A program made the position numbers and the translations under genes. Shown here piece by piece: positions 45,010-60,689 of a DNA stretch of 64,000 nucleotides. The DNA is from a virus. The notes under the pieces are model-generated. The model searched no databases, was not told the DNA's origin, and saw nothing but the letters and a program-made list of their open reading frames with translations. The first letter of the stretch is position 1. Each line of letters opens with the position of its first letter. The DNA lies in IMG/VR virus record IMGVR_UViG_3300042731_005302; one strand, 5' to 3'.

Positions 45010-45025
45010 GTGTGACATGTTACAC
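45010..45025 (+). promoter_or_regulatory. dyad motif M1 (degenerate GTGTGA-CATG-TTACAC)
   Basis: 88 nt upstream of ATG 45113. The change in the left arm is G:T-compatible. Confidence 0.5.
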
Positions 45026-45112: not shown

Positions 45113-45736
45113 ATGACTAAGAAACAGCGCACCTTCGAGCAAGCCATTTCCGATTTGAATAGCGCCATCAATGGCCATCGCAGGGGAGCGAAAATCCCGG
45201 AGCGTATCCGGGAATGCTTTTCCCTGTCTGCCGATAACGCTTCCTTTGTGGAAGCGTTTGGAGCGCTCATTGAGAAACAGTTCCGGGGCACAAAGGGAAC
45301 CGATCCGACGCGGGCCGCCTTACGTATGGCGCTCAAACGTGAGCGGGATGGAAACGGATATCAGCGAGATGGAGACCCGCAGCGCTGGAATATCAGCGTA
45401 GAATTCGATAAGAAAGGTAGTCCCAGCGTAGGGGTTACCATGCACAAAACCGCAGAGCCGGAACCGGAACAGGACGAAAACACGATCGAACCAGCCGCCT
45501 CCAATCCTGCCACTGCTGGAGCGGAAAGGGCCAGCGTGACGGAACTGGAGAAGGGAATCAAAAGCATGTCTGCCCCAGAGCTTTTGCAAGTGAGCCGAGA
45601 TCTGATTCACGCTATCGAGTCCATGGACGATTCAACCGAAGCGTTGAAGCTCATCCATGCCATCCGCAACAGTCTGACAGCTGCCGCTAAGACTGTTCGG
45701 GAACGTGCTTCCATGGTCGAAGCCAAAGCGGCGTAG
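45113..45736 (+). CDS. hypothetical early protein
   Basis: GTAGGAGA SD upstream. 207 aa. First rightward gene after the divergent control region. Confidence 0.6.
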   Translation: MTKKQRTFEQAISDLNSAINGHRRGAKIPERIRECFSLSADNASFVEAFGALIEKQFRGTKGTDPTRAALRMALKRERDGNGYQRDGDPQRWNISVEFDKKGSPSVGVTMHKTAEPEPEQDENTIEPAASNPATAGAERASVTELEKGIKSMSAPELLQVSRDLIHAIESMDDSTEALKLIHAIRNSLTAAAKTVRERASMVEAKAA

Positions 45737-45742
45737 CCCAAT

Positions 45743-45772
45743 GGGGCAGTACATCCTAGGATGTACTGCCCC
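45743..45772 (+). terminator. 30-bp perfect palindrome / strong hairpin after the first early gene
   Basis: ggggcagtacatcc-ta-ggatgtactgcccc. The T-tract is weak (aatctgtttg). Confidence 0.5.
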
Positions 45773-46012
45773 AATCTGTTTGCGATTAATCGTAAGCTGA
45801 TTAATCGTTTTGAGTGTACGCCTATGCGCGCACGCCTTGTGTGCGCTCACGTCAGCGTTTTGCGTACACTCCCTGGGGTTTTCGTAATCCCCAAACTGCT
45901 GGAGTCCGCCAGGGAAAACCGCCCATGGATTCCGATAGATTTAATTTATAGGGACTCTCACAAGTCTCTATAAATTAGATTTATAGCTGACCATTGTTGT
46001 GTCAGCGAGTAC

Positions 46013-46028
46013 GTGTAATAAGTTACAC
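46013..46028 (+). promoter_or_regulatory. dyad motif M2 (GTGTAA-TAAG-TTACAC)
   Basis: Flanked by complementary C...G. No ORF with an SD lies within the next 350 nt. Confidence 0.7.
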
Positions 46029-46384
46029 GTGCAGCTCTTTTACAATTCAGACAGCCAATGTCACGGGGACATGCCGCGCCGGCTGCTACCAAGCAGAATC
46101 CGGTACTGGGCACAGTACCCGTGAAACGCTACAGGAATCGAGTGAGAAGCGCGGCAGCATAGAAGCGTACCGACACTATACGGGACAGAACCCCGTAGAG
46201 ACTGGGCAGACAAGGGGCAATAACAACCTCAATCTGGACTGTTCACCCTGCGGTACGATGGGATCTAAGATCCGCAGCCACTTACCTGGAATGTACTTCC
46301 CTCCTCCCGTCGATGCTTATGGGAGTGCAAAGCTACAGACCAGATCGGCTTGACAGCTGCAACCGTCCACGGTTCCTGGCTCAT

Positions 46385-46400
46385 GTGTAAGAAGTTACAC
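46385..46400 (+). promoter_or_regulatory. dyad motif M3 (GTGTAA-GAAG-TTACAC)
   Basis: Lies inside the ORF-poor stretch. Confidence 0.7.
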
Positions 46401-46521
46401 CTTCTTACCCTGGACGAGCGAACTTGAGCGAATACGTCAAACACCTCAGACGTGCAATGTAGCTATCAGCGCACAGACGAGAGTCTACAACCCCAGATAC
46501 TCCCACGTAGGAGATCAACCA

Positions 46522-46569
46522 AGACCGTCTCGCAAGCTTGCGACGTTATGCTGTGGTCTGATTTGTTTG
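46522..46569 (+). terminator. terminator-like hairpin
   Basis: Outer stem agacc...ggtct encloses the perfect palindrome tcgcaagcttgcga. Followed by gatttgtttg. Confidence 0.45.
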
Positions 46570-46581
46570 ACACAATCTTTC

Positions 46582-46612
46582 TGCTCTTACCTATTCTATA
46601 TAGGTGAGAGCA
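46582..46612 (+). other. 12-bp stem hairpin
   Basis: tgctcttaccta-ttctata-taggtgagagca, with one G:T pair. Confidence 0.45.
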
Positions 46613-46628
46613 CTTTCTTGAGTTAGAG

Positions 46629-46644
46629 GTGTAATTTGTTACAC
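46629..46644 (+). promoter_or_regulatory. dyad motif M4 (GTGTAA-TTTG-TTACAC)
   Basis: 61 nt upstream of ATG 46705. Bracketed by the inverted repeat agcactttct / agaaagtgct. Confidence 0.7.
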
Positions 46645-46704
46645 GTTATGCCGTTAATTCAGAGAAAGTGCTTTCTTAACGTCAAACTAATGGGAGTTAA
46701 TGAT

Positions 46705-46944
46705 ATGTTTTCTTACGCTTATTTCGTTGAAGCCTGCCAGAAACTAGTAGAGAAAACCACAGTACGTAATTTTTGGGCATTGCTGCACGCCTACCGGAAA
46801 CTGCTGGAAGCTGGCCTGCACGCCAGTGAGAGTTTCGACAGAGCCGTCATGGCGGCCTACCACCGAGAGGGATGGGATTCTTACCATACCCGGGTCATGG
46901 CAGAGGAAGCGGAGCGCTGGCTTCGCGTCAACGGCTACAACTAG
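46705..46944 (+). CDS. hypothetical protein
   Basis: GGGAG SD 8 nt upstream. 79 aa. Followed by a terminator. Confidence 0.5.
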   Translation: MFSYAYFVEACQKLVEKTTVRNFWALLHAYRKLLEAGLHASESFDRAVMAAYHREGWDSYHTRVMAEEAERWLRVNGYN

Positions 46945-46967
46945 CCGTTGCCATAATTTCACCTATA

Positions 46968-47397: not shown

Positions 47398-47413
47398 GTG
47401 TAATTTGTTACAC
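47398..47413 (+). promoter_or_regulatory. dyad motif M5 (GTGTAA-TTTG-TTACAC; arms extend to TTAGGTGTAA)
   Basis: 32 nt upstream of ATG 47445. Confidence 0.7.
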
Positions 47414-47444
47414 CTAATTACAACAACCCGTAGGAGATCAAAAG

Positions 47445-47645
47445 ATGAACTTATTAGCCTATGCAAAACAACACAATATTTCAGAAGAAATCCTGGATGA
47501 TTTCGTCCACGATGTAGCCAGCGATATGGCCACTGCCACCAACAACGGTGGCCTGTCTGAGCAGATCCAATTTCTTACCACTACGGTAGGAGAAGAGCAA
47601 ACAAAAAGCATCCTCCAGGCTATTGTCAAGGCCGAAGCATCTTAA
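47445..47645 (+). CDS. hypothetical acidic protein
   Basis: GTAGGAGA SD upstream. 66 aa. Confidence 0.55.
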   Translation: MNLLAYAKQHNISEEILDDFVHDVASDMATATNNGGLSEQIQFLTTTVGEEQTKSILQAIVKAEAS

Positions 47646-47649
47646 TAGG

Positions 47650-47665
47650 GTGTAATTTGTTACAC
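47650..47665 (+). promoter_or_regulatory. dyad motif M6 (GTGTAA-TTTG-TTACAC)
   Basis: Starts 5 nt after stop 47645. 151 nt upstream of ATG 47816. Confidence 0.7.
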
Positions 47666-47815
47666 CTAGCCAAATCGCAGCGTCATGTTGGCGCTCATAG
47701 AGCGCTCCAGCCTCAGGGCCTTAGTCACCGGCAACGAGGCGGTTATAGAGGCTGCAGCGCAGCAGTTGCCAGCCTCTGAGTACAACAAACTCGTAAGACA
47801 CATGAGGAGATTCCA

Positions 47816-48139
47816 ATGATCACGGGCACCGTTATCCACGGCACGATGAGGCCGCAGGATCTGATTCCTGCGTTCCTAGTGGTGCTTCACGAGATGGCAA
47901 AGGAAGATCCCACCGCCTCTGCGGTTGAAGAGCAGTGCGCTGGGTATCCCCTCGGCTTTGTACCCTCCTACGCCATGGAGGACGAGGACTCGGAATGGTG
48001 GTATTCCGAAGAGGCAAACAGCAGACTGGAGGAGTTGTTCTATATTCTCCACAATCTGGCCCCGGAGGGTTACTACTTCGGCTCCCATCCAGGCGACGGG
48101 TCAGACTATGGTTTCTGGGAAATCGAGGAGGAATTATGA
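47816..48139 (+). CDS. hypothetical acidic protein
   Basis: GAGGAGA SD upstream. 107 aa. Confidence 0.6.
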   Translation: MITGTVIHGTMRPQDLIPAFLVVLHEMAKEDPTASAVEEQCAGYPLGFVPSYAMEDEDSEWWYSEEANSRLEELFYILHNLAPEGYYFGSHPGDGSDYGFWEIEEEL

Positions 48140-48357
48140 CCCTGACTCTCTACATGAAGTCCGGCAACAAAATAGTCCTGAAAGGAATAAAGGACTACAA
48201 ATACGGATACAAGGGAAACGAGATTATCAGCCTGACAATCGAGAGGCAAAAGTGGGCGCAAATCGCCAGCAAGTTCTTTGGGACAGAAGTACTTCCCGTA
48301 GGCTCTACGGACTTGTCACAGATTGAGGCCCTAACAGTTAGGAGGATATTCTCATGA
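48136..48357 (+). CDS. hypothetical protein
   Basis: ATGA overlap with the upstream gene. GAGGAGGA SD upstream. 73 aa. Confidence 0.5.
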   Translation: MTLTLYMKSGNKIVLKGIKDYKYGYKGNEIISLTIERQKWAQIASKFFGTEVLPVGSTDLSQIEALTVRRIFS

Positions 48358-48596
48358 AACTCCCTAGCGTGAAAGACCTGGCTCCGCTCACCACAAAGGC
48401 GGGACTCGCAGAGAAGCTTTATCCGAGCGTAATCTATGATACGGCGCTCCCGCAGGGTTGGGTTGATATCTGTATGGCCAATGGCTTCGACCCACGACCC
48501 TGTGTCATTTGGGGCTACCTAGCAGGGAACGTCTTTGGCAAGCCCCTGCCCCTTACAGCAGAGGCAGAAGAGTTCCTACGTATAATGTATCCGTGA
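48354..48596 (+). CDS. hypothetical protein
   Basis: ATGA overlap with the upstream gene. AGGAGGA SD upstream. 80 aa. Confidence 0.5.
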   Translation: MKLPSVKDLAPLTTKAGLAEKLYPSVIYDTALPQGWVDICMANGFDPRPCVIWGYLAGNVFGKPLPLTAEAEEFLRIMYP

Positions 48597-48613
48597 TTAT
48601 ACGTTTGTTTGTT

Positions 48614-48660
48614 AAAAGCTGTTAGTCGAAACAAACCTTTGGCTAACAGCTTTTGTTGTT
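48614..48660 (+). terminator. rho-independent terminator ending the early operon
   Basis: aaaagctgttag...ctaacagctttt forms a 12-bp stem, followed by gttgtttgtt. Confidence 0.65.
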
Positions 48661-49420
48661 TGTTCGTACTCTTCCACAAAGGCCGCAACTTTACCACAGA
48701 AGCCAGCTTCCCGCAGGGTTGGGCAATTTTTACTTGTTTTTATATTTTAGAATAAGTAACTATATTATATCTTGTCTATATATTTGGGTATAGGGCAAGA
48801 CAGGGGTCAAATTTTTTTTCGACAAAATGTTATTAAAAAAAAATGAACTTTTTTTGATTTCTAAGGAAAGCTTAAACTGCGTATCGCAAAGTTAATATTA
48901 AATTACAAAACTATACCGATAATCAAAAAAAATTCTTTATTTTTTAATTTTCAAGTTGACACCTAAACGTTCCTAAAATCCATATCGTTTCCACGCAAAG
49001 CACTTTTTCAGTCATCTCATTCCTTTTTGGCCGAAATTCCTTACGGGTTTCAGTAACTTGGGTAATCAGCAAAAAAACCTGAAGGACGGATTCGTGATAA
49101 ATTATGACGTACCTCGCCGGGATTAACCTTCACAAATCCTGAATAGAGGGGTCTACTCCGAAAAAACTTTGACTACGACTTAAATTACATTAAAGACGAT
49201 CTATGTTATGGATCTTTTTAAACGAATTATGTCTTTTTTTGATTTAAATCCTAAGTTGCAGGAAAACACTTTTTTTCTAAGTCATTATTGCGAAACTAAC
49301 CTCCAGATAAGTTTTCAACTTCTATAATCTTACTTACACTACCGAGCAGCGATTTACTTGCACTTGTACGCCACTTGCATTACTCTGTAATCTCTCATTT
49401 TCTCCTTAGGAGTTCGTAAG

Positions 49421-50653
49421 ATGCCGTATAAGTCAGAGGTCTTCACGCATGTAACTCGCATGGCCGATACTTTGATGGTCGGCAGGTCCACCTTCCATCC
49501 CATTCCTGCTAAGGTTCGCAATCCCGGCGAAGTCTTAACCATGTTGCGCTACGACTCCCACCCCGATGACTCCCGCCTAGGCGACCTGATGGGTTCTGGC
49601 CTGCTGGAACAGCTTCAAAGAAAAAACTTAGGGGACGGTACAGCCAAGGTGGATTTTCTCTGCTGCTGCGGCTCTAGGCATTCCCTGACCCTACAGACAT
49701 TAAGGCGGCGTCTCATCAGTGGCCGTAGTTTCTACCTGCCCCCTCTGTCAAGCCACGAAGGCGGAGACAAGGATAAAATGCCCTACAACGAGGAGGAGGC
49801 CAGGGTAACAGACCTACAGCCCTTTTTCAGCCTGCAGTCAAAGAATGAGTCTTATCCTTTCGTCTGCCCTCACATACAGAACATCTTAAAGGAGGCGTAC
49901 CCTGCCGCCTTCAGTGTCTGGAGCAATCTAAGGGGCAGTGTTGTGAAGGCAGTACAGGCCGCTCAGAACCCTGTAGTTCAGTGGCGTTGGTTTCGCAGGG
50001 ACCTAGGCTTCTTTTTCTTCCTGCAAGATGTCGGACTCCCCGACCACGAACATCAAATACTAAGCAGAAAAGTACAGCGGGGAATCTTCGTAAAAGAGCA
50101 GTTCACTTGGGTGGAGCCCGGACAAGCCCCCCTAAAGCGGGCATATAACCTGCATACAGGTCTCCCTGCCAGGGCACAGGCCAATCTCATGCAACGGTTT
50201 AGATCCCTCCACCATCGAGCCCGGACTAACAACTACGACCTTCATTTCACAGATGTGGAACAATTCATACAGGCCTTGCAGCCTCTGCCGAAAGGCTTCA
50301 ACGACGACCCTAGGAAGTGGAGAATTCACTTCTCAGAGCCCACCCGAAGGGGGTATGGGCCTGACAACTTCGAGTGGAGGCAAAATGAAGCCTATACCCA
50401 AGAGTACGGCACCTCGATAGCCCCGGAGCGGGTAAAGCCGGTCACCAACTGCACCCAACTGCACGACATGTTGAGGCCGGAGTCCCCTGAGGACTTTCTG
50501 AATAAGTTAGCTCTGCTATTCCGGCAACTGGACACCCTGAACTCTAGTGATCTTCTCTGCCCTGAGCCGGCATGGGTGAGCACTGAGGTGGGAATAAGAC
50601 CGGACGTGATGGAGACTATCATAAAGAAGGTGCAGGAGGCGGAACCAGAATAG
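49421..50653 (+). CDS. hypothetical 410-aa protein, first gene after the AT-rich gap
   Basis: TTAGGAG SD upstream. I recognise no motifs by eye. Confidence 0.7.
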   Translation: MPYKSEVFTHVTRMADTLMVGRSTFHPIPAKVRNPGEVLTMLRYDSHPDDSRLGDLMGSGLLEQLQRKNLGDGTAKVDFLCCCGSRHSLTLQTLRRRLISGRSFYLPPLSSHEGGDKDKMPYNEEEARVTDLQPFFSLQSKNESYPFVCPHIQNILKEAYPAAFSVWSNLRGSVVKAVQAAQNPVVQWRWFRRDLGFFFFLQDVGLPDHEHQILSRKVQRGIFVKEQFTWVEPGQAPLKRAYNLHTGLPARAQANLMQRFRSLHHRARTNNYDLHFTDVEQFIQALQPLPKGFNDDPRKWRIHFSEPTRRGYGPDNFEWRQNEAYTQEYGTSIAPERVKPVTNCTQLHDMLRPESPEDFLNKLALLFRQLDTLNSSDLLCPEPAWVSTEVGIRPDVMETIIKKVQEAEPE

Positions 50654-50669
50654 GTGTAACAAGTTACAC
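50654..50669 (+). promoter_or_regulatory. dyad motif M7 (GTGTAA-CAAG-TTACAC; arms extend to TAGGTGTAAC)
   Basis: The upstream stop codon TAG abuts the motif. 41 nt upstream of ATG 50710. Confidence 0.7.
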
Positions 50670-50709
50670 CTACAATCAATCACCCAACCAAGCACAATAG
50701 GAGACCACA

Positions 50710-51348
50710 ATGTCCACCAAACTTACGAAAATCATGCGCAAAGAGGCCCTTAACAACGTCTTAGCGGCCACCATCAACAAGCGGCATAAAGCTCTCTTAC
50801 AGCAGGCGTCTGCCTTTGTAAGGAAGGCCCTACTCAACACAATCTCAAAGGAAGTCCAGGAATGGCTGGACTCGGCCCCGGAAGGCTGCCGCGTGGATAT
50901 GGTAGGGAGTCTGAGCATCTACATGAAGCCGGACCCAAGCCGTAACGAACATAGGTGGGATGACCCAGTAGCCAAGCAGAGGGCAGAGCTGGTTACAGAT
51001 CGGTACTATAGTAGTGTCACGCAGATATCTATCATCCCTGTCAAGATCCCACCGAACTACAGTCACGGCTACAGCGTTACCCTTGAGAGCAAAGAGGAAT
51101 TGCAGGCCTGGGCGGCCCTTGCCAAGAAATTCGACAAATTGGCCGAGGATACAAAGAAGGTCTGGACCACGGTCAAGGCAGCTCTGGAGGCCTGCACCAC
51201 CGTCAAGCAGGTGGAGGAGAGGTATCCCGACCTGGTGCAGTATCTTCCTGAGACGGCCCCACGGACTAAGGCACTGGCCGTCACCAATGTCGCGGTAGTG
51301 AGGGTCCTTGCCTGCGGTAAGACCGGCGACAAGAAGGATTGCAAATAG
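50710..51348 (+). CDS. hypothetical protein (possibly Nmad5-like nucleotide-modification-associated family; from recollection only)
   Basis: ATAGGAGA SD upstream. 212 aa. N-terminal KLTKIMRKEALNNV and C-terminal ALEACTTVKQVEERYPDLVQYLPE recall that family. Unverified. Confidence 0.35.
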   Translation: MSTKLTKIMRKEALNNVLAATINKRHKALLQQASAFVRKALLNTISKEVQEWLDSAPEGCRVDMVGSLSIYMKPDPSRNEHRWDDPVAKQRAELVTDRYYSSVTQISIIPVKIPPNYSHGYSVTLESKEELQAWAALAKKFDKLAEDTKKVWTTVKAALEACTTVKQVEERYPDLVQYLPETAPRTKALAVTNVAVVRVLACGKTGDKKDCK

Positions 51349-51359
51349 GAGCCAATCCA

Positions 51360-51854
51360 ATGGCAACAGAACACTACCTTCCACCAACATACTTGGAACT
51401 GGAATGGTCCAGCCCACGGTTCCAAGTTAATGGCGGAATTATCAGCCTACTCACTACCTGCACAATCCTCAATCAACTGCCGGCCTGGCTGGAAGAGGAC
51501 ATGCGCACCGTCAATAGGACAGCTTGCCTGTCCTGGGACAGAGGGCTGGGGGAGTACAACCACGTCAGCTTGGAAGAATCTCATGAGTTGCTGCAGAAGA
51601 GAAAGGAAGAAGTCGGGAACGACATGATGAAGCTGTTCAAGCTATTCGTAGAGGCTCACAACGGAACAGTCCTACAGAACTTCGGTGACGGCAGCGATCC
51701 TAAGCTCTGCCAAAGGTTGGACGGGGTGTTTCCACTTCAAGCCGAGGACCTGCGGCAACGAATCAAGGTGGCTGAAGACAACCTGCAATGGCTTCTGGAT
51801 AAACAGAAACAACTGAGGCGGGAGGCGGCTGAGAAGCTGGCTGATGGTCAATAG
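51360..51854 (+). CDS. hypothetical protein
   Basis: ATAGGAG SD upstream. 164 aa. Confidence 0.6.
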   Translation: MATEHYLPPTYLELEWSSPRFQVNGGIISLLTTCTILNQLPAWLEEDMRTVNRTACLSWDRGLGEYNHVSLEESHELLQKRKEEVGNDMMKLFKLFVEAHNGTVLQNFGDGSDPKLCQRLDGVFPLQAEDLRQRIKVAEDNLQWLLDKQKQLRREAAEKLADGQ

Positions 51855-51870
51855 GTGTAACAAGTTACAC
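51855..51870 (+). promoter_or_regulatory. dyad motif M8 (GTGTAA-CAAG-TTACAC)
   Basis: Abuts stop 51852..51854. 22 nt upstream of ATG 51892. The 32-nt block aggtgtaacaagttacaccacaacgtaggagc is identical to the one at 57321. Confidence 0.7.
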
Positions 51871-51891
51871 CACAACGTAGGAGCCCCAACA

Positions 51892-52158
51892 ATGAAACCA
51901 AGATTCTACGGCAGACAACAAGGCTGGAATTACGAGAAGGCAGTGAAGTACAACGACAGAGTAGACGGCATCCTCTACCTGTCGGAGCTGGCCGGCCCCA
52001 ACGGTGCCCACTACCACCTGTTCGTAGACCGGAACACAACCATACATTACCTGACGACGGTGCTTCTGCCGAAGTTCCAAGCTCATGGCGACGTGGTGTC
52101 ATGGAGCTACAACTTTATTCCTGAAGTTCCTAAAAAAGATGAAAGGGAGGAGGTATAA
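51892..52158 (+). CDS. hypothetical protein
   Basis: GTAGGAGC SD upstream. 88 aa. Confidence 0.55.
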   Translation: MKPRFYGRQQGWNYEKAVKYNDRVDGILYLSELAGPNGAHYHLFVDRNTTIHYLTTVLLPKFQAHGDVVSWSYNFIPEVPKKDEREEV

Positions 52159-52440
52159 ATGAAACACACGCCAGGACCCTGGAAAGTAAAGCCGTGTCCC
52201 TACTGTCGAAAAGACTGCAAAGGTTTAATGGCACTCCCTATTACAAAAATGCCGGGGGCCGTAGTTAGCAAAGCTGACGCACGCCCGATAGCAGCAGCCC
52301 CTGAGCTACTGGCAGCTGCTGAAATCGCGCAAGATGCTTTGAAATACTATCTGGAGTACGGGGAGTTCCCTTTATTTCCTGACGCATCACTCGTGGTTGA
52401 GGAGCTAACCGCAGCCATTAAGAAAGCCACTGGCAAGTAA
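52159..52440 (+). CDS. hypothetical protein
   Basis: GGGAGGAGG SD upstream. 93 aa. The HTPGPW N-terminus is common in phage orphan proteins. Confidence 0.6.
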   Translation: MKHTPGPWKVKPCPYCRKDCKGLMALPITKMPGAVVSKADARPIAAAPELLAAAEIAQDALKYYLEYGEFPLFPDASLVVEELTAAIKKATGK

Positions 52441-52454
52441 TAGGAGGAAGACGG

Positions 52455-52670
52455 GTGAAACTCTTAGTCGTAAACCTACAGAATCCTGAGCTGACGCACT
52501 ACCACGACCCAAAGACTATAGGTTCATGGCTGCTATGGGGCCGTCGCCTGTCCAACTATCCCATGTTCCTAGTCTACCCTGATGGTTCTACCATACCTTT
52601 TGAATACCCCAGTGCGGAGGTAGGAGAAATACAGAAGGCTGTAGACAGCATATTCAGCTTATTCCCATAA
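52455..52670 (+). CDS. hypothetical protein
   Basis: GTG start after TAGGAGGAAG. 71 aa. Confidence 0.45.
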   Translation: MKLLVVNLQNPELTHYHDPKTIGSWLLWGRRLSNYPMFLVYPDGSTIPFEYPSAEVGEIQKAVDSIFSLFP

Positions 52671-52680
52671 GGCCCCAGCC

Positions 52681-52911
52681 ATGCCCTACATCTGCGACAA
52701 CCCGGCCTGCCCAAACCACATAGAGCTGGCCACTAGAGAAGCCAACGTGCCCTACATCGACACGGTCAGAGACGGGTTCGTATACCGCATAGAGCGCTAC
52801 CTGTATGGGCGGCATGACAGCCCTGACAGAATATACTTCTGCCATGCCTGCCATACTGCGGTCCAACTGACTAGGCGTTCTAATAACGGCAATAACCGGG
52901 CTCACGGCTGA
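52681..52911 (+). CDS. hypothetical Cys/His-rich protein
   Basis: 76 aa with CDNPAC...CHACH. Confidence 0.5.
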   Translation: MPYICDNPACPNHIELATREANVPYIDTVRDGFVYRIERYLYGRHDSPDRIYFCHACHTAVQLTRRSNNGNNRAHG

Positions 52912-52976
52912 GCTAGGAATGAAACAGCGGAGTCTAATCGCTCCGGTTCATTAACTGAGTAAGAACGGCGGATCCT

Positions 52977-53153
52977 ATGACAAAACGGGACCATAAGAAG
53001 CAACTGGTGGGAGCACTCGTAACCATGTTGCGGGCTGGTAAGGTCCTTCAGGGCGACAAAGACCTTGCAGAGGACAACGAAGTAAAGAAACGCATCGACG
53101 TAGAACTGGCGCTTGCCGACGAACTAGAGAGGCGCTATCGCGTGGGCGCTTAA
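52977..53153 (+). CDS. possible small protein (58 aa, below the ORF-track cutoff)
   Basis: ATG 52977 to TAA 53151..53153. It fills an otherwise empty 270-nt gap. The antisense ORF 52975..53178 is less plausible. Confidence 0.4.
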   Translation: MTKRDHKKQLVGALVTMLRAGKVLQGDKDLAEDNEVKKRIDVELALADELERRYRVGA

Positions 53154-53182
53154 ATCCTTCTAAACACATAGGAGCCAAACAA

Positions 53183-53587
53183 ATGAGCTACGACATTTAC
53201 CTGACAAACCCCGTCACACAAGAGCCCCTACACCTGGACGAGCCCCACCACATGCGAGGAGGCACCTACGCACTCGGCGGGACCACAGAGGCCCGCCTGA
53301 ATGTTACCTACAACTACGGTAAACATTTCCGCCGGGTGTTCAGTGACGAGAACGTAGAGCTAACTCAATTCGAGCGACTCTTCGGCGGAGGAGAGACCGG
53401 CATCCGACGCCTGTATGGAACGACAGGCGCAGAGAGCATTCCTGTCCTGGAGGCCGCGATCAAGCAGCTCAAGGACGATGTCAGTGAAAACTACTGGGAG
53501 GCTACGGAAGGCAACGCAAAGCAGGCCTTGTTACAACTGCTGGCGCTGGCGAGAATGAGGCCTGACGGAGTGTGGGCCGGGGACTAG
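53183..53587 (+). CDS. hypothetical protein
   Basis: ATAGGAGC SD upstream. 134 aa. Confidence 0.6.
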   Translation: MSYDIYLTNPVTQEPLHLDEPHHMRGGTYALGGTTEARLNVTYNYGKHFRRVFSDENVELTQFERLFGGGETGIRRLYGTTGAESIPVLEAAIKQLKDDVSENYWEATEGNAKQALLQLLALARMRPDGVWAGD

Positions 53588-53717
53588 CCACTTAATCAAA
53601 CCCCTCAGGCTGTGGCCCCGTGACCTGAGGACTCCATCCACAACCTAATAGAGGAGGTACAGGCCAAGCAGAGAAAACCGGACACTACGGGGCACTAACG
53701 TCAATATTGGAGCTACC

Positions 53718-53900
53718 ATGAAAAATACTTATAACAACCGGACCCATAAAGTAAATAAATACAGATGCCCTGTCTGCGGCTGGCAGGGCACTGCTGAGGA
53801 CATGAAACTATCAGAGCCTCAGGTTATAAAGGACGTGGCCGCAGTACTGTATACAAGGGTCTGCCCACGATGTGGGCATGACGAACTTACTAAGGTGTAA
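53718..53900 (+). CDS. small zinc-ribbon protein
   Basis: CPVCG...CPRCG. 60 aa. The stop TAA lies inside motif M9. Confidence 0.5.
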   Translation: MKNTYNNRTHKVNKYRCPVCGWQGTAEDMKLSEPQVIKDVAAVLYTRVCPRCGHDELTKV

Positions 53901-53910
53901 CAAGTTACAC
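53895..53910 (+). promoter_or_regulatory. dyad motif M9 (GTGTAA-CAAG-TTACAC)
   Basis: 26 nt upstream of ATG 53936. Confidence 0.7.
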
Positions 53911-53935
53911 CTACAAACACATAGGAGCAATAACA

Positions 53936-54229
53936 ATGAGCATGCAAAAATTTGCAGCCAGAGAGCGATATGAGTTCGCAAACGGTGCTGTTGGCTGGGG
54001 ACCCGGAGGCCCCTTCGACTGCTTGGGGCCATTTGCAAAAGTGCAGAACTGTCCTGTCGAGGGGACGGACAAACGATATACCTGCTATGCCACAGGCATA
54101 GCTGACACATTCTTCTCCATTCCGGCCTGCACCAAAATCAAGGGGAAATATATCGTCGGGTATTTTACCCGTGAGGACGATGCTTGCGTATTCCGGCCCC
54201 ATAACGACTACAAGGCCTTCGTCAAGTGA
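53936..54229 (+). CDS. hypothetical protein
   Basis: ATAGGAGC SD upstream. 97 aa. Confidence 0.55.
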   Translation: MSMQKFAARERYEFANGAVGWGPGGPFDCLGPFAKVQNCPVEGTDKRYTCYATGIADTFFSIPACTKIKGKYIVGYFTREDDACVFRPHNDYKAFVK

Positions 54230-54552
54230 GACCCCTATCCCAGCCCTACAGCCCAAAGACCAAGCTTGGCAACCGCACCATCGTCAAGGTCCTTGTCCTG
54301 GCCAAGCCAACGTCCAAGACCAAGTACCTGGTCATGAACCCCTGCGGTCATACCTCTGTGGTGACTCACAAGTCACTTTACGACCCGGCAGTTAGGGCCA
54401 CTGTCAACTGTCCTGAATGTAAGGCCAAGGCCCTGGCAGCCGGCAACAGAGAGAACAAATGGGCTCTGAAAGACAAGAGCCGGCTGATCAAGAAAGGCTC
54501 TCACGACTGGGCTAGAAGGCTAATGGCCGGCAGCTTACAACAGAACACATAG
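54226..54552 (+). CDS. hypothetical protein with CxxC pair
   Basis: GTGA overlap start. NPCGH...CPECK. 108 aa. Confidence 0.45.
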   Translation: MRPLSQPYSPKTKLGNRTIVKVLVLAKPTSKTKYLVMNPCGHTSVVTHKSLYDPAVRATVNCPECKAKALAAGNRENKWALKDKSRLIKKGSHDWARRLMAGSLQQNT

Positions 54553-54564
54553 GAGCAAAACGCA

Positions 54565-54840
54565 ATGAAACTAAACCCCTATACAGTAGTTCTTGCTTTT
54601 CCTGACTACTTGTATTTTCCTCGTAATGCCTGCTATGCCCGGCACGTAGCGTCCTCTGACCCGGACAAGGCACTGAAACTGGTAAGGATGCTTGCACTTG
54701 AAAACACCAAGGAGTTTCTTGCTACTGAAGGCCCGGACAACAGCCACTTTATCGGCGCTCTAGGCAGTCCCGATGAATTCAAACTGATTGCCGTCTTTGA
54801 AGGCTACTGCACAGTAGTCGAAGACAGCTGCCCCTTCTGA
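54565..54840 (+). CDS. hypothetical protein
   Basis: ATAGGAGC SD upstream. 91 aa. Confidence 0.55.
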   Translation: MKLNPYTVVLAFPDYLYFPRNACYARHVASSDPDKALKLVRMLALENTKEFLATEGPDNSHFIGALGSPDEFKLIAVFEGYCTVVEDSCPF

Positions 54841-54886
54841 TTCCACTGGCCTTAGGCCAAACAGCTACAAGTAGGAGAACCAACAA

Positions 54887-55588
54887 ATGTGTAATCCCCG
54901 CCATGAAGAACACGAATACGAAGGCTACACCATCAAGGTCATCCAAGACATCGACCCGCAGAATCCGAGAAAAGACTTCGACAACCTGGGAGTTATGGTC
55001 TGCGAGCACTCGTGCTATGACTTGGGAGACGGCGGCATGTACCTGCTGCGGGATGCCGTCAGAGCACATCCGTTATGGCATGACTGCTGGGAAGATGATC
55101 TGGAGGAAGACGACAACCAGTGGTGGCTTGCCAAGGCCGAACGGTTCGGCTTCATAATCCTGCCACTGTATCTGTACGACCACAGCGGCATCACCATGAA
55201 CACTACTGGATTTTCCTGTCCATGGGACAGCGGCCGAGTAGGCGTGATCTTCGCTTCTCCTGCCAAGATCAGAGAATGCCACCTCTTGAAGCCCAAGCAA
55301 CGCATCTCAAATAAAATCAAAAAGCTTGTCATTAAAGTTCTCAAGGCAGAGGTGGAAGAGTACGACCAATACCTGACCGGCGATGTCTGGGGCTTTATCA
55401 TCGAAGACTCGGACGGCGAAGAGATCCAGGACGGCTCCTGCTGGGGCTTCTTCGGGCAGGACTACTGCCTGCAAGATGCAAAGGGGGTAGTAGATGCGGA
55501 GATCGAGCGCCGCAAAGAGCAGGCCCTGCTGGATGCTGCCAAGGAACAGGCATCTCAGTTTGTAGAGGCAGAAGACTGTTACGCTTAG
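54887..55588 (+). CDS. conserved phage/plasmid-type hypothetical protein
   Basis: GTAGGAGA SD upstream. 233 aa. Motifs LYLYDHSGI, CPWDSGRVG and YLTGDVWGF. Confidence 0.6.
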   Translation: MCNPRHEEHEYEGYTIKVIQDIDPQNPRKDFDNLGVMVCEHSCYDLGDGGMYLLRDAVRAHPLWHDCWEDDLEEDDNQWWLAKAERFGFIILPLYLYDHSGITMNTTGFSCPWDSGRVGVIFASPAKIRECHLLKPKQRISNKIKKLVIKVLKAEVEEYDQYLTGDVWGFIIEDSDGEEIQDGSCWGFFGQDYCLQDAKGVVDAEIERRKEQALLDAAKEQASQFVEAEDCYA

Positions 55589-55590
55589 AC

Positions 55591-55606
55591 GTGTAACTTG
55601 TTACAC
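55591..55606 (+). promoter_or_regulatory. dyad motif M10 (flipped centre: GTGTAA-CTTG-TTACAC)
   Basis: 26 nt upstream of ATG 55632. The centre is the reverse complement of CAAG. Confidence 0.7.
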
Positions 55607-55631
55607 CTGAAAGAAAGTAGGAGCACCAACA

Positions 55632-57311
55632 ATGATCGACAATCAGTTCTATCCCACCCCTGTAGGCTTAGCACAAAGGGCTTACCATAAATTCACAAGT
55701 CGGGACATCACCCGCCTCCTGGAGCCTGAGGCCGGTAGAGGAGACTTTCTGGACGCTATCGGATGCCGTGACACTTATTATCACGGCAGAACCACTCAAG
55801 CCGACTGCATCGAGCTGGACCTGCAAAATCAGGCCATCCTCAGAGATAAGGGTTACCGAGTGATCGACGGGGATTTCCTGCAGTTCAGCGGCAGCGGAGC
55901 TATGTACTCCCACGTCCTCATGAATCCCCCATTCAATCAGGGAGTGGCTCACGTACTCAAGGCCTGGGACATTTTGTTTGACGGGGAGATCGTAGCCATC
56001 ATCAATGCTGCATCTCTACGAAACCCAGACTCGGGGGCAGCTCGTCGCCTGTTCAGGCTCATTGCTGATCACGGCGAAGTAGAATTCTTGCAGCAACAGT
56101 TTCAGACCGAAGACACCCAGCGCAAGACCAACGTCGAGATTGCCCTTGTACACCTCACGAAGAAGGCCTCTGTAGCTTATAGCAACCCCGCTGAAGGGTT
56201 GAAGGAAGATGCTGGACCTGGGATAGCAGACGAGGTCAACAAACAACAGCTGGCCCTGCCGGAGCCTACTATCCACAGTACCGTTAGAGCCTTCGACTTG
56301 GCAGTCGGGAAGATGAAAGTGGCTGTCATGGCGGAGGACGAAGCCTCTTACTACGAGCGGCTGATCTCCTCTGCCCTGGACCCGTCTACCCAGCCTGTTG
56401 AAGTCAAGCTGAAAAAGGTCCAAGAGGAAATCAACGGCAGGTATGACAAGTTGAAGGGCATGGCCTGGAGCCTTATCCTGCAATCCACAGAGTTCACCCA
56501 GAGACTGTCCTCCAAGGTGCAGAAAAAGTTGGAGTCTGACTTTGAACAGGTACAGAAACTGGAGTTTACTTTCTCCAATATCTACGGCCTGTTGTCTGGG
56601 CTTGTGAACCAAAAAGGTCAGATGGACATGGAGATGGTAGCCGAGGTGTTTGACCTGTTCACACGCTACCACTCCGATAATCGGGCCTACTACAGAGGGT
56701 GGAAGAGCAACGACAAGCACAAGACCTGCGCCTACCGCCTGAAGATGACCAGGTTCATCCTGCCTCTTGGGGGCTATGACTCGTTCCTTGACTACACCAA
56801 GAAACAGGAACTATTCGACATCGACAAGGCGTTTGCCATGCTGGACGGCAAGCCAATTCCTGCTAGAACGGACGACCCTGAGGACGCTGGGTATGAAGCA
56901 TACCGTAATACCTTGTTCTACCTGGCTGATCAGCGGTTCGGAGATCTTAAAACCTCAGAGCGATTCCAGACCACCTACTTCGATGTCAGATACTATCCAG
57001 GGACCGGGACCATGCACTTCTTTCCGAAGCGGAAAGACCTCGTCGATAAGATGAACCGGATTGTCGGCAGGATGCGGGCTTGGCTGCCTCCTGAGGATGA
57101 GCGGGTAGACAAGAAGTTCTGGGTGCAGTATGACAAGGCCGAAAAGGTGACGGCTCAGATGAACAAGACGCCCAAGTACAATTCAACGTGGTTTCGGGTG
57201 AATGAAGAGGAGGCCCTGGCTGTGCTGCATGAGGCGGCCTGTGCCAAGCTCAACATCGATTTGTCAGACGGCCTGTTTCATGAGGCGCACAAGGCGCTGG
57301 GTGTAGATTGA
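55632..57311 (+). CDS. N6-adenine DNA methyltransferase with DUF4942-like C-terminal region
   Basis: FYPTP, LEPEAGRGDF (SAM binding) and NPPF catalytic motif. 559 aa with a long C-terminal extension. Confidence 0.75.
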   Translation: MIDNQFYPTPVGLAQRAYHKFTSRDITRLLEPEAGRGDFLDAIGCRDTYYHGRTTQADCIELDLQNQAILRDKGYRVIDGDFLQFSGSGAMYSHVLMNPPFNQGVAHVLKAWDILFDGEIVAIINAASLRNPDSGAARRLFRLIADHGEVEFLQQQFQTEDTQRKTNVEIALVHLTKKASVAYSNPAEGLKEDAGPGIADEVNKQQLALPEPTIHSTVRAFDLAVGKMKVAVMAEDEASYYERLISSALDPSTQPVEVKLKKVQEEINGRYDKLKGMAWSLILQSTEFTQRLSSKVQKKLESDFEQVQKLEFTFSNIYGLLSGLVNQKGQMDMEMVAEVFDLFTRYHSDNRAYYRGWKSNDKHKTCAYRLKMTRFILPLGGYDSFLDYTKKQELFDIDKAFAMLDGKPIPARTDDPEDAGYEAYRNTLFYLADQRFGDLKTSERFQTTYFDVRYYPGTGTMHFFPKRKDLVDKMNRIVGRMRAWLPPEDERVDKKFWVQYDKAEKVTAQMNKTPKYNSTWFRVNEEEALAVLHEAACAKLNIDLSDGLFHEAHKALGVD

Positions 57312-57322
57312 CTTTTAATTAG

Positions 57323-57338
57323 GTGTAACAAGTTACAC
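57323..57338 (+). promoter_or_regulatory. dyad motif M11 (GTGTAA-CAAG-TTACAC)
   Basis: 22 nt upstream of ATG 57360. Confidence 0.7.
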
Positions 57339-57359
57339 CACAACGTAGGAGCAACGACA

Positions 57360-57902
57360 ATGCCAGAATACAGAATCAAATGGGAGATCGACCTCGATGC
57401 TGACACCCCGAGGAAGGCCGCAGAACTTGCCATGAACTACCTACAGACTGGCAAGGAGTGCCATGTCTTCATTGTCAGGGACAACGCAGAGCCAGACCTG
57501 GGGCAGTATTTTCAGGTAGACCTGGATGCCCCTGTTCCTGGCAGCAACGAATACCTGGAAGAGTTCTTTAAGGCCTATGTAGTCTGCGCCCTGCGGAGTT
57601 CTACAGACGAAGAAGGAACTCCTCTTGATGAGGACTACAGCCAGGCGGACATAGATGCCGGCACTCTGAAGGAAATGAAGTTGGACTGCGATGACTTCAT
57701 TATGTTGGCTAAAGATCCGCTGAGTCGCGCAGATTTACCTGCTTCCACTGCTGGTTACAACTTTTGGCTGACTAGGAACCGGCATGGGGCAGGATTCTGG
57801 GACCTGGGCTTAGGCAAGGTCGGGGAAGAGCTGACCACGTTGGCCCACACCTACGGTTCCGTAGACCTGTACGTTGGAGACGACGACAAGCTTTACAGTT
57901 GA
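57360..57902 (+). CDS. hypothetical protein
   Basis: GTAGGAGC SD upstream. 180 aa. C-terminal motif GYNFWLTRNRHGAGFWD. Confidence 0.6.
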   Translation: MPEYRIKWEIDLDADTPRKAAELAMNYLQTGKECHVFIVRDNAEPDLGQYFQVDLDAPVPGSNEYLEEFFKAYVVCALRSSTDEEGTPLDEDYSQADIDAGTLKEMKLDCDDFIMLAKDPLSRADLPASTAGYNFWLTRNRHGAGFWDLGLGKVGEELTTLAHTYGSVDLYVGDDDKLYS

Positions 57903-57914
57903 CAGGCCCCCACC

Positions 57915-58112
57915 ATGCACAACCGACAAACCCTAAGCCTTAAGAAGCCTTCAACCCGGCCCCACAAACCAAGGGACCAGCAGCCAAGGGACCACAAGAT
58001 AGCCCGTCATACCCTTGTTTGCCTTTACGGTCCGCTGGCCCCTGGCCGGCATGACCGCATGCAGCGGGAGATGAACAACCTAGCCAAGAGGAGGCCCAAA
58101 CACCAGAAATAA
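57915..58112 (+). CDS. doubtful ORF (very basic, no SD)
   Basis: 65 aa, Arg/Lys/Pro-rich. Confidence 0.25.
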   Translation: MHNRQTLSLKKPSTRPHKPRDQQPRDHKIARHTLVCLYGPLAPGRHDRMQREMNNLAKRRPKHQK

Positions 58113-58118
58113 AATAAC

Positions 58119-58147
58119 TTGACCCTGAATATAGAGAAGTCTATACT
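58119..58147 (+). promoter_or_regulatory. sigma70-type promoter TTGACC-N17-TATACT
   Basis: -35 at 58119..58124 and -10 at 58142..58147 with a 17-nt spacer. Confidence 0.5.
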
Positions 58148-58153
58148 ACAACT

Positions 58154-58173
58154 TGTCTACAGTTATGTAGACA
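58154..58173 (+). promoter_or_regulatory. dyad TGTCTACA-GTTA-TGTAGACA at the predicted transcription start
   Basis: 8-bp perfect arms beginning about 7 nt after the -10 element. Confidence 0.45.
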
Positions 58174-58196
58174 CAACTACAAGTAGGAGAGTAATT

Positions 58197-58406
58197 ATGC
58201 GAAATTCAAGTTCTAACAGCTCAGGACCGGGAGTGCTCGGCCTTTTGGGAGTGGCCTTCGTAGTGCTTAAATTAACAGGACACATAGATTGGTCCTGGTG
58301 GTGGGTGACAGCGCCGTTTTGGGGCGGGTTAGTACTGGTGCTGGCAGCATTGGTGGGGTTCTTCCTAATAACCTATGGTAAAAAGGCGTTTAAATCTAGA
58401 AAGTAG
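58197..58406 (+). CDS. small two-TMD membrane protein (holin-like architecture)
   Basis: GTAGGAGAG SD upstream. GVLGLLGVAFVVL and GGLVLVLAALVGFFLI segments with a basic C-terminus. Confidence 0.55.
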   Translation: MRNSSSNSSGPGVLGLLGVAFVVLKLTGHIDWSWWWVTAPFWGGLVLVLAALVGFFLITYGKKAFKSRK

Positions 58407-58473
58407 CCTCACAGGCGCTATGTAGGCGGCTGAAGCACTTCGCCTGCTGTAACAATCAATAGGAGATCAAACA

Positions 58474-58881: not shown

Positions 58882-58884
58882 CTT

Positions 58885-59148
58885 ATGAACCCACTAATCG
58901 GCGCAACTCTGCCTGCGTTTGGTAGCTACAAACTGGAGCCTATTTACCTAGCTCCTAAGCTGCAATTGAGCCCCAAAGTTCAGGTGAGCGATGCCTTCAG
59001 AGAGCAGTTCAATACCTACTTGCTTGATAGGTTCGGGTACGTGGAGTCCCCGGTAGAACCTGGAGAATTCCTGGTTTCTGAAGCATTTAGAACCATCATG
59101 GGCAGGCCGGAAGATTTGTCTGTTCTGAAGGCAGTTATTGACAGTTAG
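58885..59148 (+). CDS. hypothetical protein
   Basis: 87-aa ORF in operon context. Confidence 0.5.
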   Translation: MNPLIGATLPAFGSYKLEPIYLAPKLQLSPKVQVSDAFREQFNTYLLDRFGYVESPVEPGEFLVSEAFRTIMGRPEDLSVLKAVIDS

Positions 59149-59158
59149 GAGGTAAGTC

Positions 59159-60679: not shown

Positions 60680-60689
60680 GGGGACAGAG

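Follow-up and report, generated by a model that had tools for sequence, protein, structure and literature searches.

What a phage keeps in a kilobase without genes directly behind its first early gene is the question raised by positions 45737–46704 of the window, the 64,000-nucleotide stretch of viral DNA analyzed here (IMG/VR record IMGVR_UViG_3300042731_005302). An earlier note, made from the letters alone, had seen no credible gene in this gap and had proposed a structured non-coding RNA (ncRNA) locus bounded by three dyads; we found that the gap is indeed non-coding and in parts highly structured, but the dyads as RNA bounds and the fold drawn for the first unit did not hold up, and no Rfam family matched. 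The window belongs to a novel siphovirus-like phage: the nearest large terminase is 66% identical, and by TerL, Vibrio and Pseudomonas siphoviruses come closest, at 31% identity. The 207-aa first early protein has no homologue among 5.8 billion proteins and an AF2 model of low confidence (pLDDT 52.7), and neither it nor most of the early proteins contain a recognizable domain. Homologue searches with this protein, the 79-aa protein flanking the gap on its other side and a 410-aa early protein gave a single matching phage, which we call L057; the N terminus of the first early protein is basic in the window phage (MTKKQR), a feature that the L057 counterpart lacks. The exact-protein look-ups matched Logan contigs of this phage alone, at 100% identity, which left no variation for analysis, and no relative close enough for alignment of the gap was found. 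No phage RNA polymerase or sigma factor was found in the ~72 kb examined of the 82.7-kb contig, and no LacI-family protein, repressor or integrase was seen. The neighboring 69-aa gene has 32-nt direct repeats on both sides.

The gap is non-coding by every test run. It extends from the upstream stop codon at 45736 to the downstream ATG behind GGGAG, and within it no Shine-Dalgarno (SD) sequence with a start codon precedes an ORF of at least 12 aa on either strand, in agreement with the earlier note; an independent gene caller, applied to one of this phage's Logan contigs, placed no gene between 45744 and 46635. The 119-aa ORF at 45994–46353 exists as described, with a TTG start and no SD, and is spurious; it has no match among 1.84 billion protein representatives, and its conceptual translation has none in phage genomes by tblastn. 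The hexamer score is about zero and then negative along the gap, and codon-position composition is flat in the gaps of both the window phage and L057, neither of which is gene-like. The statement that no minus-strand ORF of at least 60 aa overlaps the region was slightly off, since a 72-aa ORF (45632–45850, minus strand) covers the first 114 nt. One frame across 45991–46704 contains only two stops, as do 0.15% of shuffles of this segment, which was picked post hoc; over the whole gap the corresponding P is 0.32, and in the L057 gap it is 0.13. We rejected this frame as a sign of hidden coding, its significance being confined to the post-hoc segment and absent from either whole gap.

The suggested Rfam search gave no family match, with nothing reaching gathering thresholds in the whole window; at E-values up to 5, the interval 45500–47000 gave three sub-threshold, chance-level matches, two of them to miRNA models and one to Yfr20 (27 bits, where the threshold is 44). 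ARAGORN found no tRNA or tmRNA in the window. We set aside CRISPR-like, retron, intron and tRNA-like readings of the gap, for which partner genes are absent and Rfam and ARAGORN gave no matches, as well as a Rho-type C-rich, G-poor tract, the C/G ratios being unremarkable. The gap had no blastn match in phage genomes, plasmids or any of the fetched loci, and no tblastx match in the fetched loci or the window. The features that it does contain are listed in Table 1.

Table 1. Features in and around the gene-free gap and copies of the repeated palindrome (window coordinates)
Feature	Position	Strand	Remarks
Palindrome copy GTGTGACATGTTACAC	45010..45025	+	One mismatch, G·U in RNA; 87 nt 5' of first early gene
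First early gene	45113..45736	+	207 aa; orphan; directly 5' of gap
Perfect 16+16 nt palindrome	45742..45773	+	14-bp RNA stem, then ATCTGTTTGC; terminator-like end of first early gene
Six further back-to-back hairpins	45782-45808, 45812-45871, 45874-45893, 45900-45934, 45935-45984, 45986-46007	+	
Palindrome copy 1	46009..46032	+	Core 46013-46028 GTGTAATAAGTTACAC; 10-bp extended stem, then AGCTCTTTTA; no SD or start downstream
ORF-less unit 1	46029..46384	+	356 nt; not significantly structured
Palindrome copy 2, GTGTAAGAAGTTACAC	46385..46400	+	No gene downstream
ORF-less unit 2	46401..46628	+	228 nt; holds orphan ribosome-binding site
Structured leader of next gene	46585..46671	+	Hairpin 46585-46609 and ~25-bp hairpin 46610-46671
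Palindrome copy 3	46629-46644	+	Enclosed in ~25-bp hairpin 46610-46671
Gap-ending gene	46692..46944	+	79 aa; SD GGGAG, ATG 46705
Other palindrome copies (47398..61143)	47398, 47650, 50654, 51855, 53895, 55591, 57323, 61128	+	Intergenic or overlapping stop codon

The first part of the gap is packed with hairpins. No other plus-strand structure in the window is as extreme as the fold of 45737–46012 (z −11.7), and the hairpin block as a whole (45742–46032) comprises eight consecutive back-to-back hairpins; the repeats previously pointed out in 45785–45990 are present, with positions correct to within 1 nt. A break of a public assembly falls at 45742–45773. Folding energy over 45737–46012 is −128.5 kcal/mol on the plus strand against −112.2 kcal/mol on the minus strand (16 better on the plus strand), and the mismatches in strong stems, read on the plus strand, are eight G·U against one A·C (p ~0.04, for stems chosen after inspection). 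Hairpins at work in a rightward transcript would be expected to show such a plus-strand G·U bias and energy advantage, and the G·U mismatches appear to point to RNA. The stem of the hairpin at 45935–45984 is AU-rich, 22 bp long and includes three G·U pairs. Together with the ~25-bp stem at 46610–46671, this predicted stem would offer the ~20 bp or more of near-perfect intercistronic double-stranded RNA that marks an RNase III site. The hairpins at 45742–45773, 46009–46032 and 46582–46612 were picked up by a simple terminator scan, with weak T tracts (ATCTGTTTGC, AGCTCTTTTA and CTTTCTTGAG, respectively).

The three dyads claimed at 46013, 46385 and 46629 are present, as exact 16-bp palindromes 372 and 244 nt apart; rather than marking off this locus or its RNA units, however, they are members of a 12-copy, phage-wide family associated with gene starts. 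GTGTAA-N4-TTACAC occurs in ten exact and two near copies, against 1.6 expected by chance (13 matches were reached in 0 of 100 shuffles); all of them lie at 45.0–61.1 kb on the early-gene side, with no copy in the 11 kb past 61.1 kb. An SD and an ATG follow within 21–87 nt in 9 of the 12 copies, the SD being (G)TAGGAG in eight of these nine. From 47398 onward, seven of the eight copies are followed by an A/C-rich leader, then TAGGAG, then an ATG at +21 to +40, the copy at 47650 having only an ATG at +19 without an SD; the leader between palindrome and SD varies in length from 8 to 73 nt. The two gap copies at 46013 and 46385 are the only ones with no gene behind them.

The palindrome has perfect arms of 6–9 nt around a fixed 4-nt center, for which six tetranucleotides were observed (CAAG, CTTG, TTTG, TAAG, GAAG and CATG). 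Invariant arms around a variable center imply sequence-specific recognition. In the copy at 61128, whose left arm overlaps a stop codon, both outer positions have changed together (A...T). In the gap, all three copies are core-only: the flanks TAG...CCTACAA that gene-associated copies have in common are missing from them, and they may therefore be degenerate. In RNA, the hairpin of copy 2 loses out to an overlapping 8-bp one (46387–46408). A sigma-70 promoter beside the palindromes was sought and rejected: the 44–63 kb scan found 10 sigma-70-like sites against 13.7 expected, none adjoining a palindrome and none in the gap. Elsewhere, GTGTAA-N4-TTACAC gave 15 single matches each in viral contigs and in species-representative genomes, which is about the chance rate, many of them being ordinary terminator hairpins. 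TerL relatives at 29–47% identity carry neither this palindrome nor that of L057, and Pseudomonas phage Lana has no palindrome family.

The layout, though not the sequence, is conserved in one distant relative. L057, whose TerL is 44% identical and which has an early protein of 365 aa that is a homologue of the 410-aa one in the window phage (E 1e-14), has a gene-free 0.93 kb at the matching position and a palindrome of its own, TTTGGGA-N4-TCCCAAA, with eight copies in the same kind of position. There, a palindrome is followed by the first early gene (230 aa), a hairpin block (z −11.2), another palindrome, ~445 nt without genes (z +0.3), a further palindrome, ~320 nt without genes, a leader hairpin (25 bp, z −6.2) and the second gene. 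Four or five of the L057 palindromes lie directly 3' of an intrinsic-terminator hairpin, the place expected of an element needed for expression of the next gene. No sequence similarity was detected between the gaps of the two phages, their alignment scoring below the shuffle mean; homology between their conceptual translations was also looked for and not found, and the L057 palindrome had no match in viral contigs. That a relative with a 44% identical TerL keeps a gene-free stretch at the matching position argues against junk.

The reading that we prefer, with a probability of about one half, is that the gap is a transcribed but untranslated control region made up of a hairpin block for stopping or processing, palindromes recognized by a factor and a structured leader, placed where the first early gene gives way to the remaining rightward early and replication genes. 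We infer transcription across the gap, a phage factor as the reader of the palindrome and a role of the region in setting when, or at what level, the downstream early genes are expressed. The hairpin block, as RNA, would stop, pause or protect the first transcript, and its 22-bp stem could double as a substrate for a double-strand-specific RNase. The palindrome would most likely be the site at which a sequence-specific, phage-encoded factor gates downstream expression, and the next gene would be preceded by a long structured leader, whose surroundings (46575–46704) fold beyond chance (z −5.5). The 356-nt and 228-nt stretches between the palindromes would then be untranslated spacer or leader RNA rather than protein genes. 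The retention of ~580 nt of unstructured spacer is left unexplained by a purely regulatory role. Also weighing against this reading are the missing sigma-70-like promoter at the palindromes and the lack of a phage RNA polymerase in the ~72 kb examined, which give no account of how genes beyond the hairpin block would be transcribed, and the early proteins yielded no candidate for the factor.

In an alternative reading, unit 1, unit 2 or both would be discrete ncRNA genes, giving stable trans-acting RNAs of a few hundred nucleotides, with targets in the host or the phage, that start at, or are cut beside, the palindromes and long hairpins. Such genes are not the best reading, and on balance we think them unlikely. 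A gene-free stretch kept at the matching position in two distant phages, hairpins that behave like plus-strand RNA structures and the moderate structure of unit 2 plus leader in both phages (z −4.4 here, −4.8 in L057) would all suit them. So would the hairpin at 46582–46612, correctly noticed before and found to have 13 pairs, which puts a 13-bp stem and a T-rich tail at the end of unit 2, and the 22-bp and ~25-bp stems, which bracket the two units and are long enough for cutting by a double-strand-specific RNase. Unit 1, however, folds like chance (z −1.8, against a mean of −0.9 and sd of 1.5 for 300-nt background windows), and its counterpart in L057 does no better. The four helices proposed for unit 1 all exist as complementary sequence, but only tacggg/cccgta is populated in the ensemble (p 0.77–0.88); the nested tgccgcgc/gcgcggca, the ggtactg/cagtacc that it encloses and ctgcgg/ccgcag have probabilities of ~0. 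The supposed terminator-like hairpin at 46522–46569 is as stable as its shuffles (z 0.03). Also against ncRNA genes are the lack of an Rfam match even at permissive E-values, the lack of shared sequence between the two gaps and the lack of a recognizable promoter. A combined reading, to which we likewise give little credence, is that of a new siphovirus lineage in which a lineage-specific perfect palindrome serves as a factor handle for early genes, bound either as RNA hairpin or as DNA operator, and also drives or processes two gene-less cassettes as ncRNAs of ~360 and 230 nt, conserved in position but not in sequence; these would amount to a new kind of fast-evolving regulatory RNA in phages.

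Unit 2 also holds an orphan ribosome-binding site (RBS), CGTAGGAGATCAA (46506–46518), a 13-mer identical to the RBS of the gene at 47445 but without a start codon. A CUCC upstream pairs with it, and 8 nt past it, at the place expected for ATG, stands AGA; the next 34 codons are open, up to a TAG two nucleotides before palindrome 3. On a reading as decayed cassettes, the gap would be a hyperplastic spot where small early cassettes, each consisting of palindrome, leader, RBS and ORF, are gained and lost, and the units would be remnants that have lost their ORFs or starts. Each unit does open with the palindrome that heads real genes, the two-stop frame across 45991–46704 would be a trace of former coding, the direct repeats around the 69-aa gene suggest local cassette mobility, and T4-like phages offer a documented case of the shuffling of PeSL-type cassettes (PMC2839356). 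We nonetheless regard decay as doubtful: the stop-poor frame is a post-hoc choice that vanishes over either whole gap, codon-position composition is flat in both phages, searches at the protein and translated levels turned up nothing similar, and ~0.9–1 kb of dead DNA would not be expected to persist in two distant phages of limited genome size.

Least probable, and in our view a poor candidate, is a DNA-level element near the genome end, such as an origin of replication, a site for partition or packaging or a control of injection, read by phage proteins as double-stranded or extruded DNA: the dense perfect and near-perfect palindromes and short direct repeats, the invariant 6-nt arms and variable 4-nt center with half-sites about one helical turn apart (the geometry of dimeric helix-turn-helix operators) and the location 1–2 kb from the terminase genes and from a divergent control region with 35-bp tandem repeats would be in keeping with it. 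Against it, the strand asymmetry of the G·U mismatches and the better folding energy of the plus strand point to RNA, a better origin-like sequence is found in the AT-rich, A/T-tract region at 48.7–49.3 kb, and palindromes that sit directly before RBSs over 16 kb fit gene expression rather than replication or packaging.

Repeated inverted repeats associated with gene starts are known in few phage groups, among them the ESAS of Cluster K and the PeSLs of T4-like phages, and their mechanism is unsettled. In the uncultured lineage studied here, two distant members each have a perfect palindrome of their own at the same positions, together with a shared gene-free kilobase that is partly packed with hairpins. 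This natural "swap" of motifs is what would be expected if the site and a phage-encoded reader evolve together, and the system is suited to finding the reader of the palindrome and to studying early-to-middle timing in the absence of a recognizable promoter. Should the gene-less cassettes be expressed as RNAs, they would represent a new class of phage ncRNA; otherwise, the gap would be an ordinary, if unusually large, regulatory spacer.

Several known systems share parts of this arrangement. As in the N/nut system of lambda, a termination region follows the first early gene, with RNA hairpins before and after it. Lambda N, an arginine-rich protein, acts at boxB, which has a conserved purine-rich pentaloop and a boxA partner and occurs in only two copies per genome, whereas the palindrome here has a 4-nt loop, six loop variants and 12 copies. 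Long intercistronic hairpins in a proposed polycistronic early RNA recall T7, but the RNase III sites of T7 early mRNA are irregular hairpins of ~60 nt, unlike the repeated 16-bp palindrome. The half-sites and their spacing resemble operators of the LacI/GalR type (TGTAA and TTACA-like half-sites around a central CpG), although the center here never contains CG.

The stoperators of Cluster A mycobacteriophages are likewise many copies of one short site in short intergenic gaps, where reading by a phage protein controls elongation; they are asymmetric 13–14 bp sites bound by the monomeric immunity repressor of a temperate phage (PMC9283540). By contrast, the site described here is symmetric, no repressor or integrase was seen, and no copy lies outside the first 16 kb of the early block. 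T4-like PeSLs combine a strong sigma-70 consensus promoter and an AT-rich upstream element with G/C-tract stems of variable sequence (PMC2839356, PMC4122927); no sigma-70 promoter accompanies the palindromes, and their arms are invariant. The 12 stem-loop copies at 45–61 kb nevertheless resemble PeSLs in being repeated between small orphan early genes, in being fused to terminator hairpins in L057 and in possibly mediating the gain and loss of cassettes.

Inverted repeats with short spacers, directly 5' of a conserved ribosome-binding sequence, also define the SAS/ESAS of Cluster K mycobacteriophages, in which the 13-bp SAS is GGGATAGGAGCCC and the ESAS consists of imperfect 17-nt repeats with 4–13 nt spacers; the ESAS is found in 11–19 copies per genome, in the non-structural half only and with an occasional orphan copy, and its function is unsettled (PMC3203893). 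The two systems have no sequence in common and belong to unrelated phages of different host groups. The palindrome described here is perfect, with 6–9 nt arms and a fixed 4-nt center; unlike the fixed 13-bp SAS, its leader ranges from 8 to 73 nt, and it also populates a 1-kb gene-free region. The resemblance to SAS/ESAS lies in an inverted repeat followed by SD and ATG (9/12), in copies restricted to the early-gene side and in the presence of orphan copies.

The gene-free stretch at 45737–46704 (the gap) lies in a tailed phage without a close cultured relative, 1.4 kb into its rightward gene block and immediately 3′ of the block's first gene. The large terminase (41910–43712, minus strand) shares 31% identity with its counterparts in Vibrio phage SHOU24 and Pseudomonas phage Lana, with best matches of 66% (short contigs), 49%, and 44% identity among 5.8 billion proteins. 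Virion genes, including that of a 2197-aa tape-measure protein, run leftward from ~44.3 kb, and a rightward set of early and replication genes begins at 45.1 kb, this set including a family-A DNA polymerase located at the window start. The rightward block contains Nmad5, DUF4942, and a MoxR-type ATPase; Nmad5, DUF4942, a SpoU-type methylase, and a dCMP deaminase together suggest that the phage modifies its own nucleotides or DNA. Among the phage proteins examined, none was recognized as a phage RNA polymerase, sigma factor, or repressor.

Several repeats mark this genome. A 39-nt tandem repeat (window 1–204; 5.2 copies, 97% match), within which one public assembly of the same phage starts, lies in the first kilobase, which is rich in GC (0.62). 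A 35-bp unit (TACTACTTAA.ATACTA.AAGTGAAATT...) in three to four tandem copies at 44413–44549, in the 805-nt divergent region that separates the terminase side from the first early gene, may represent early promoters in tandem, iterons, or sites bound by terminase. A GC-rich hairpin sequence of 32 nt, GCTCAGCCGGCCCGCGCCGGTACTGAGCCGGA, is directly repeated at 47018–47049 and 47339–47370 (91% identity) on both sides of a 69-aa gene (47112–47321), which looks like a flanked mobile cassette.

The earlier note had found no credible gene in the gap, and our scan agrees: the 207-aa first early gene stops at 45736, no credible start follows until the ATG at 46705 behind GGGAG, and on neither strand of the gap does an SD-like motif 4–11 nt before ATG, GTG, or TTG introduce an ORF of 12 or more codons. 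A third-party gene caller, run on a Logan contig from this phage (window 45744–51881), made no call before 46636. The long ORF at 45994–46353 starts at a TTG located 19 nt 5′ of a palindrome whose other copies are all intergenic, lacks homologues both in 1.84 billion representative proteins and in phage genomes, and is not gene-like in composition (in-frame hexamer score ~0 in the first half, then negative; G1 0.27 and A2 0.28 vs 0.35 and 0.35 in the phage's genes). A scan found no tRNAs.

The three dyads proposed as bounds of the locus (46013, 46385, and 46629) are indeed exact 16-bp palindromes, GTGTAA-N4-TTACAC, but they are not peculiar to it, as further copies lie elsewhere in the phage. 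Chance predicts 1.6 copies, and no shuffle attained the observed count. Copies are confined to 45.0–61.1 kb, with none in the 11 kb that follow. Gene-associated copies often start at, or a few nt from, the stop codon of the previous gene, and are mostly extended to TAGGTGTAAC..GTTACACCTA. Behind them come an A/C-rich leader, (G)TAGGAG, and an ATG, which lies at +21 to +40 from the palindrome in seven cases, at +60 for 46629, and at +87 for 45010; at 47650 the ATG is at +19, without an SD. Only the copies at 46013 and 46385 have no gene behind them, and the shared flanks are missing from both as well. Sigma-70-like promoters show no enrichment, and no palindrome has one close by.

Coordinates of palindrome copies and of genes that may be linked to nucleotide or DNA modification
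Feature	Genome	Position
GTGTAA-N4-TTACAC, further exact copies	window	47398, 47650, 50654, 51855, 53895, 55591, 57323
GTGTAA-N4-TTACAC, near copies (one or two changes)	window	45010, 61128
TTTGGGA-N4-TCCCAAA	L057	984, 2416, 4840, 5709, 7051, 7618, 8063, 8955
Nmad5 protein	window	50710–51348
DUF4942 protein	window	55632–57311
SpoU-type methylase	window	60690–61133
dCMP deaminase	window	13015–13515

A 31-nt segment of a Perlucidibaca sp. MAG contig (2918–2948) is 93.5% identical to window 57312–57342 (palindrome plus flanks); it lies in a convergent intergenic region, past a chromosomal terminator, as a single copy with no other similarity, and may be a chance match. Logan contigs from this phage (SRR11712615) terminate at a 32-nt perfect palindrome (45742–45773) and at or within ~10 nt of two 16-bp copies (~51855–51881 and 57323); both kinds of palindrome break short-read assemblies, so these ends are no evidence of genome ends.

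The most extreme plus-strand structure in the window is the hairpin block at 45737–46012 (z −11.7). Together with the extended stem of the first gap palindrome (46009–46032), it comprises eight hairpins end to end; the first is the perfect 32-nt palindrome, immediately behind the stop codon, and the run contains a 22-bp AU-rich stem. The leader of the next gene is a second strong structure (z −5.5), in which a ~25-bp hairpin (46610–46671) encloses the palindrome at 46629. In the strongest intergenic stems of 45.0–47.5 kb, internal transition-type mismatches on the plus strand number eight G·U vs one A·C (p only ~0.04, for stems chosen after inspection), and folding of the hairpin block is 16 kcal/mol more favourable for the plus strand than for its complement; this bias and energy advantage would be expected from selection on a rightward transcript and point to RNA. 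For the palindrome family the evidence is mixed: invariant arms with six versions of the central tetranucleotide indicate a dimeric DNA-binding protein, or at minimum recognition of sequence and not of structure alone, and on the other side stand variants that retain pairing (61128, both outer bases changed together where the left arm overlaps a TAA stop; 45010 and 47398, via G·U), so that the palindrome may be either a DNA operator or an RNA hairpin. C/G ratios gave no sign of a Rho-loading tract.

Nothing alignable was found in the collections searched. A distant relative phage, L057 (76-kb ENA scaffold, ERZ23491057 scaffold_113; TerL identity 44%), encodes a protein homologous to the 410-aa early protein (E 1e-14), which makes the two early regions syntenic. 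L057 carries its own perfect palindrome, TTTGGGA-N4-TCCCAAA, in eight copies between early genes, with an A/C-rich leader, SD, and ATG behind them; four or five of the eight directly follow an intrinsic-terminator hairpin, and the centres (CAAG, CTTG, CATT, AATG) occur in both orientations. Its order is palindrome, first early gene (230 aa), hairpin block (z −11.2), palindrome, ~445 nt without a credible gene (z +0.3), palindrome, ~320 nt without a credible gene, 25-bp hairpin (z −6.2), SD, and next gene, matching the layout of the window's gap region. The two gaps share no sequence (local alignment score below the shuffle mean) and their conceptual translations are unrelated; thus position, size, and architecture are conserved and sequence is not. 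The palindrome has been replaced as a whole between the two phages, and a conserved layout with a swapped palindrome argues for a function tied to a putative phage-encoded reader, and against chance and simple junk.

Other gene-free gaps were seen. Window 48597–49420 (~820 nt; AT-rich, GC 0.43, with 28-nt inverted repeats and extended tracts of A/T) comes after an 18-bp terminator hairpin (48613–48655) and lies just upstream of the 410-aa early gene, with a similar gap ahead of its homologue in L057 (4223–4895), and is a candidate origin or promoter region. The record of the distantly related phage Lana has a ~640-nt gap (81201–81843) a few genes into its early block; Lana lacks both a palindrome family and counterparts of the window's early proteins.

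Most economically, 45737–46704 would be a control region of the early operon that is transcribed but not translated, a reading to which we assign a probability of about 0.5. The hairpin block would end or process the first early transcript, the gap palindromes would be degenerate copies of a factor-recognition palindrome, and the last part of the gap would be a structured leader for the next gene.

That the gap holds decayed cassettes is an unlikely alternative, drawing on the second inter-palindrome unit (46401–46628), where the 13-mer CGTAGGAGATCAA is identical to the RBS of gene 47445, AGA stands at the expected place of ATG, and 34 open codons run to a TAG 2 nt before the palindrome at 46629. 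An orphan RBS without ATG favours a cassette-decay history; in the predicted fold its SD pairs with an upstream CUCC. Across 45991–46704, the frame at position mod 3 = 1, which is also that of the downstream gene, is interrupted by only two stops (TGA 46351, TAG 46624), each just upstream of a palindrome, a scarcity seen in 0.15% of shuffles and significant for this post hoc segment only. As coding sequence this frame was rejected: with dinucleotide-preserving shuffles, whole-gap P is 0.32 for the window and 0.13 for L057, where one frame has three stops, and composition is not periodic.

Discrete ncRNAs, the proposal of the earlier note, are an equally unlikely explanation. All four helices described in the first unit (46029–46384) are complementary, but in the Boltzmann ensemble only tacggg/cccgta is populated (0.77–0.88), the nested pair and ctgcgg/ccgcag having probability ~0. 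Folded alone, the units reach z −1.8 and −2.7, against 300-nt windows with mean −0.9 and sd 1.5; the supposed terminator at 46522–46569 is no more stable than shuffles, and Rfam returned no match at gathering thresholds and only chance-level ones below. A DNA-level element is less likely still. These three alternatives are not mutually exclusive.

Among described phenomena, the window's palindrome element comes closest to the inverted repeats termed ESAS in Cluster K mycobacteriophages (PMC3203893) and to the PeSL cassettes found in T4-like phages (PMC2839356, PMC4122927); it resembles both in position, but lacks the defining sequence features of ESAS and the defining sequence/promoter features of PeSL cassettes.
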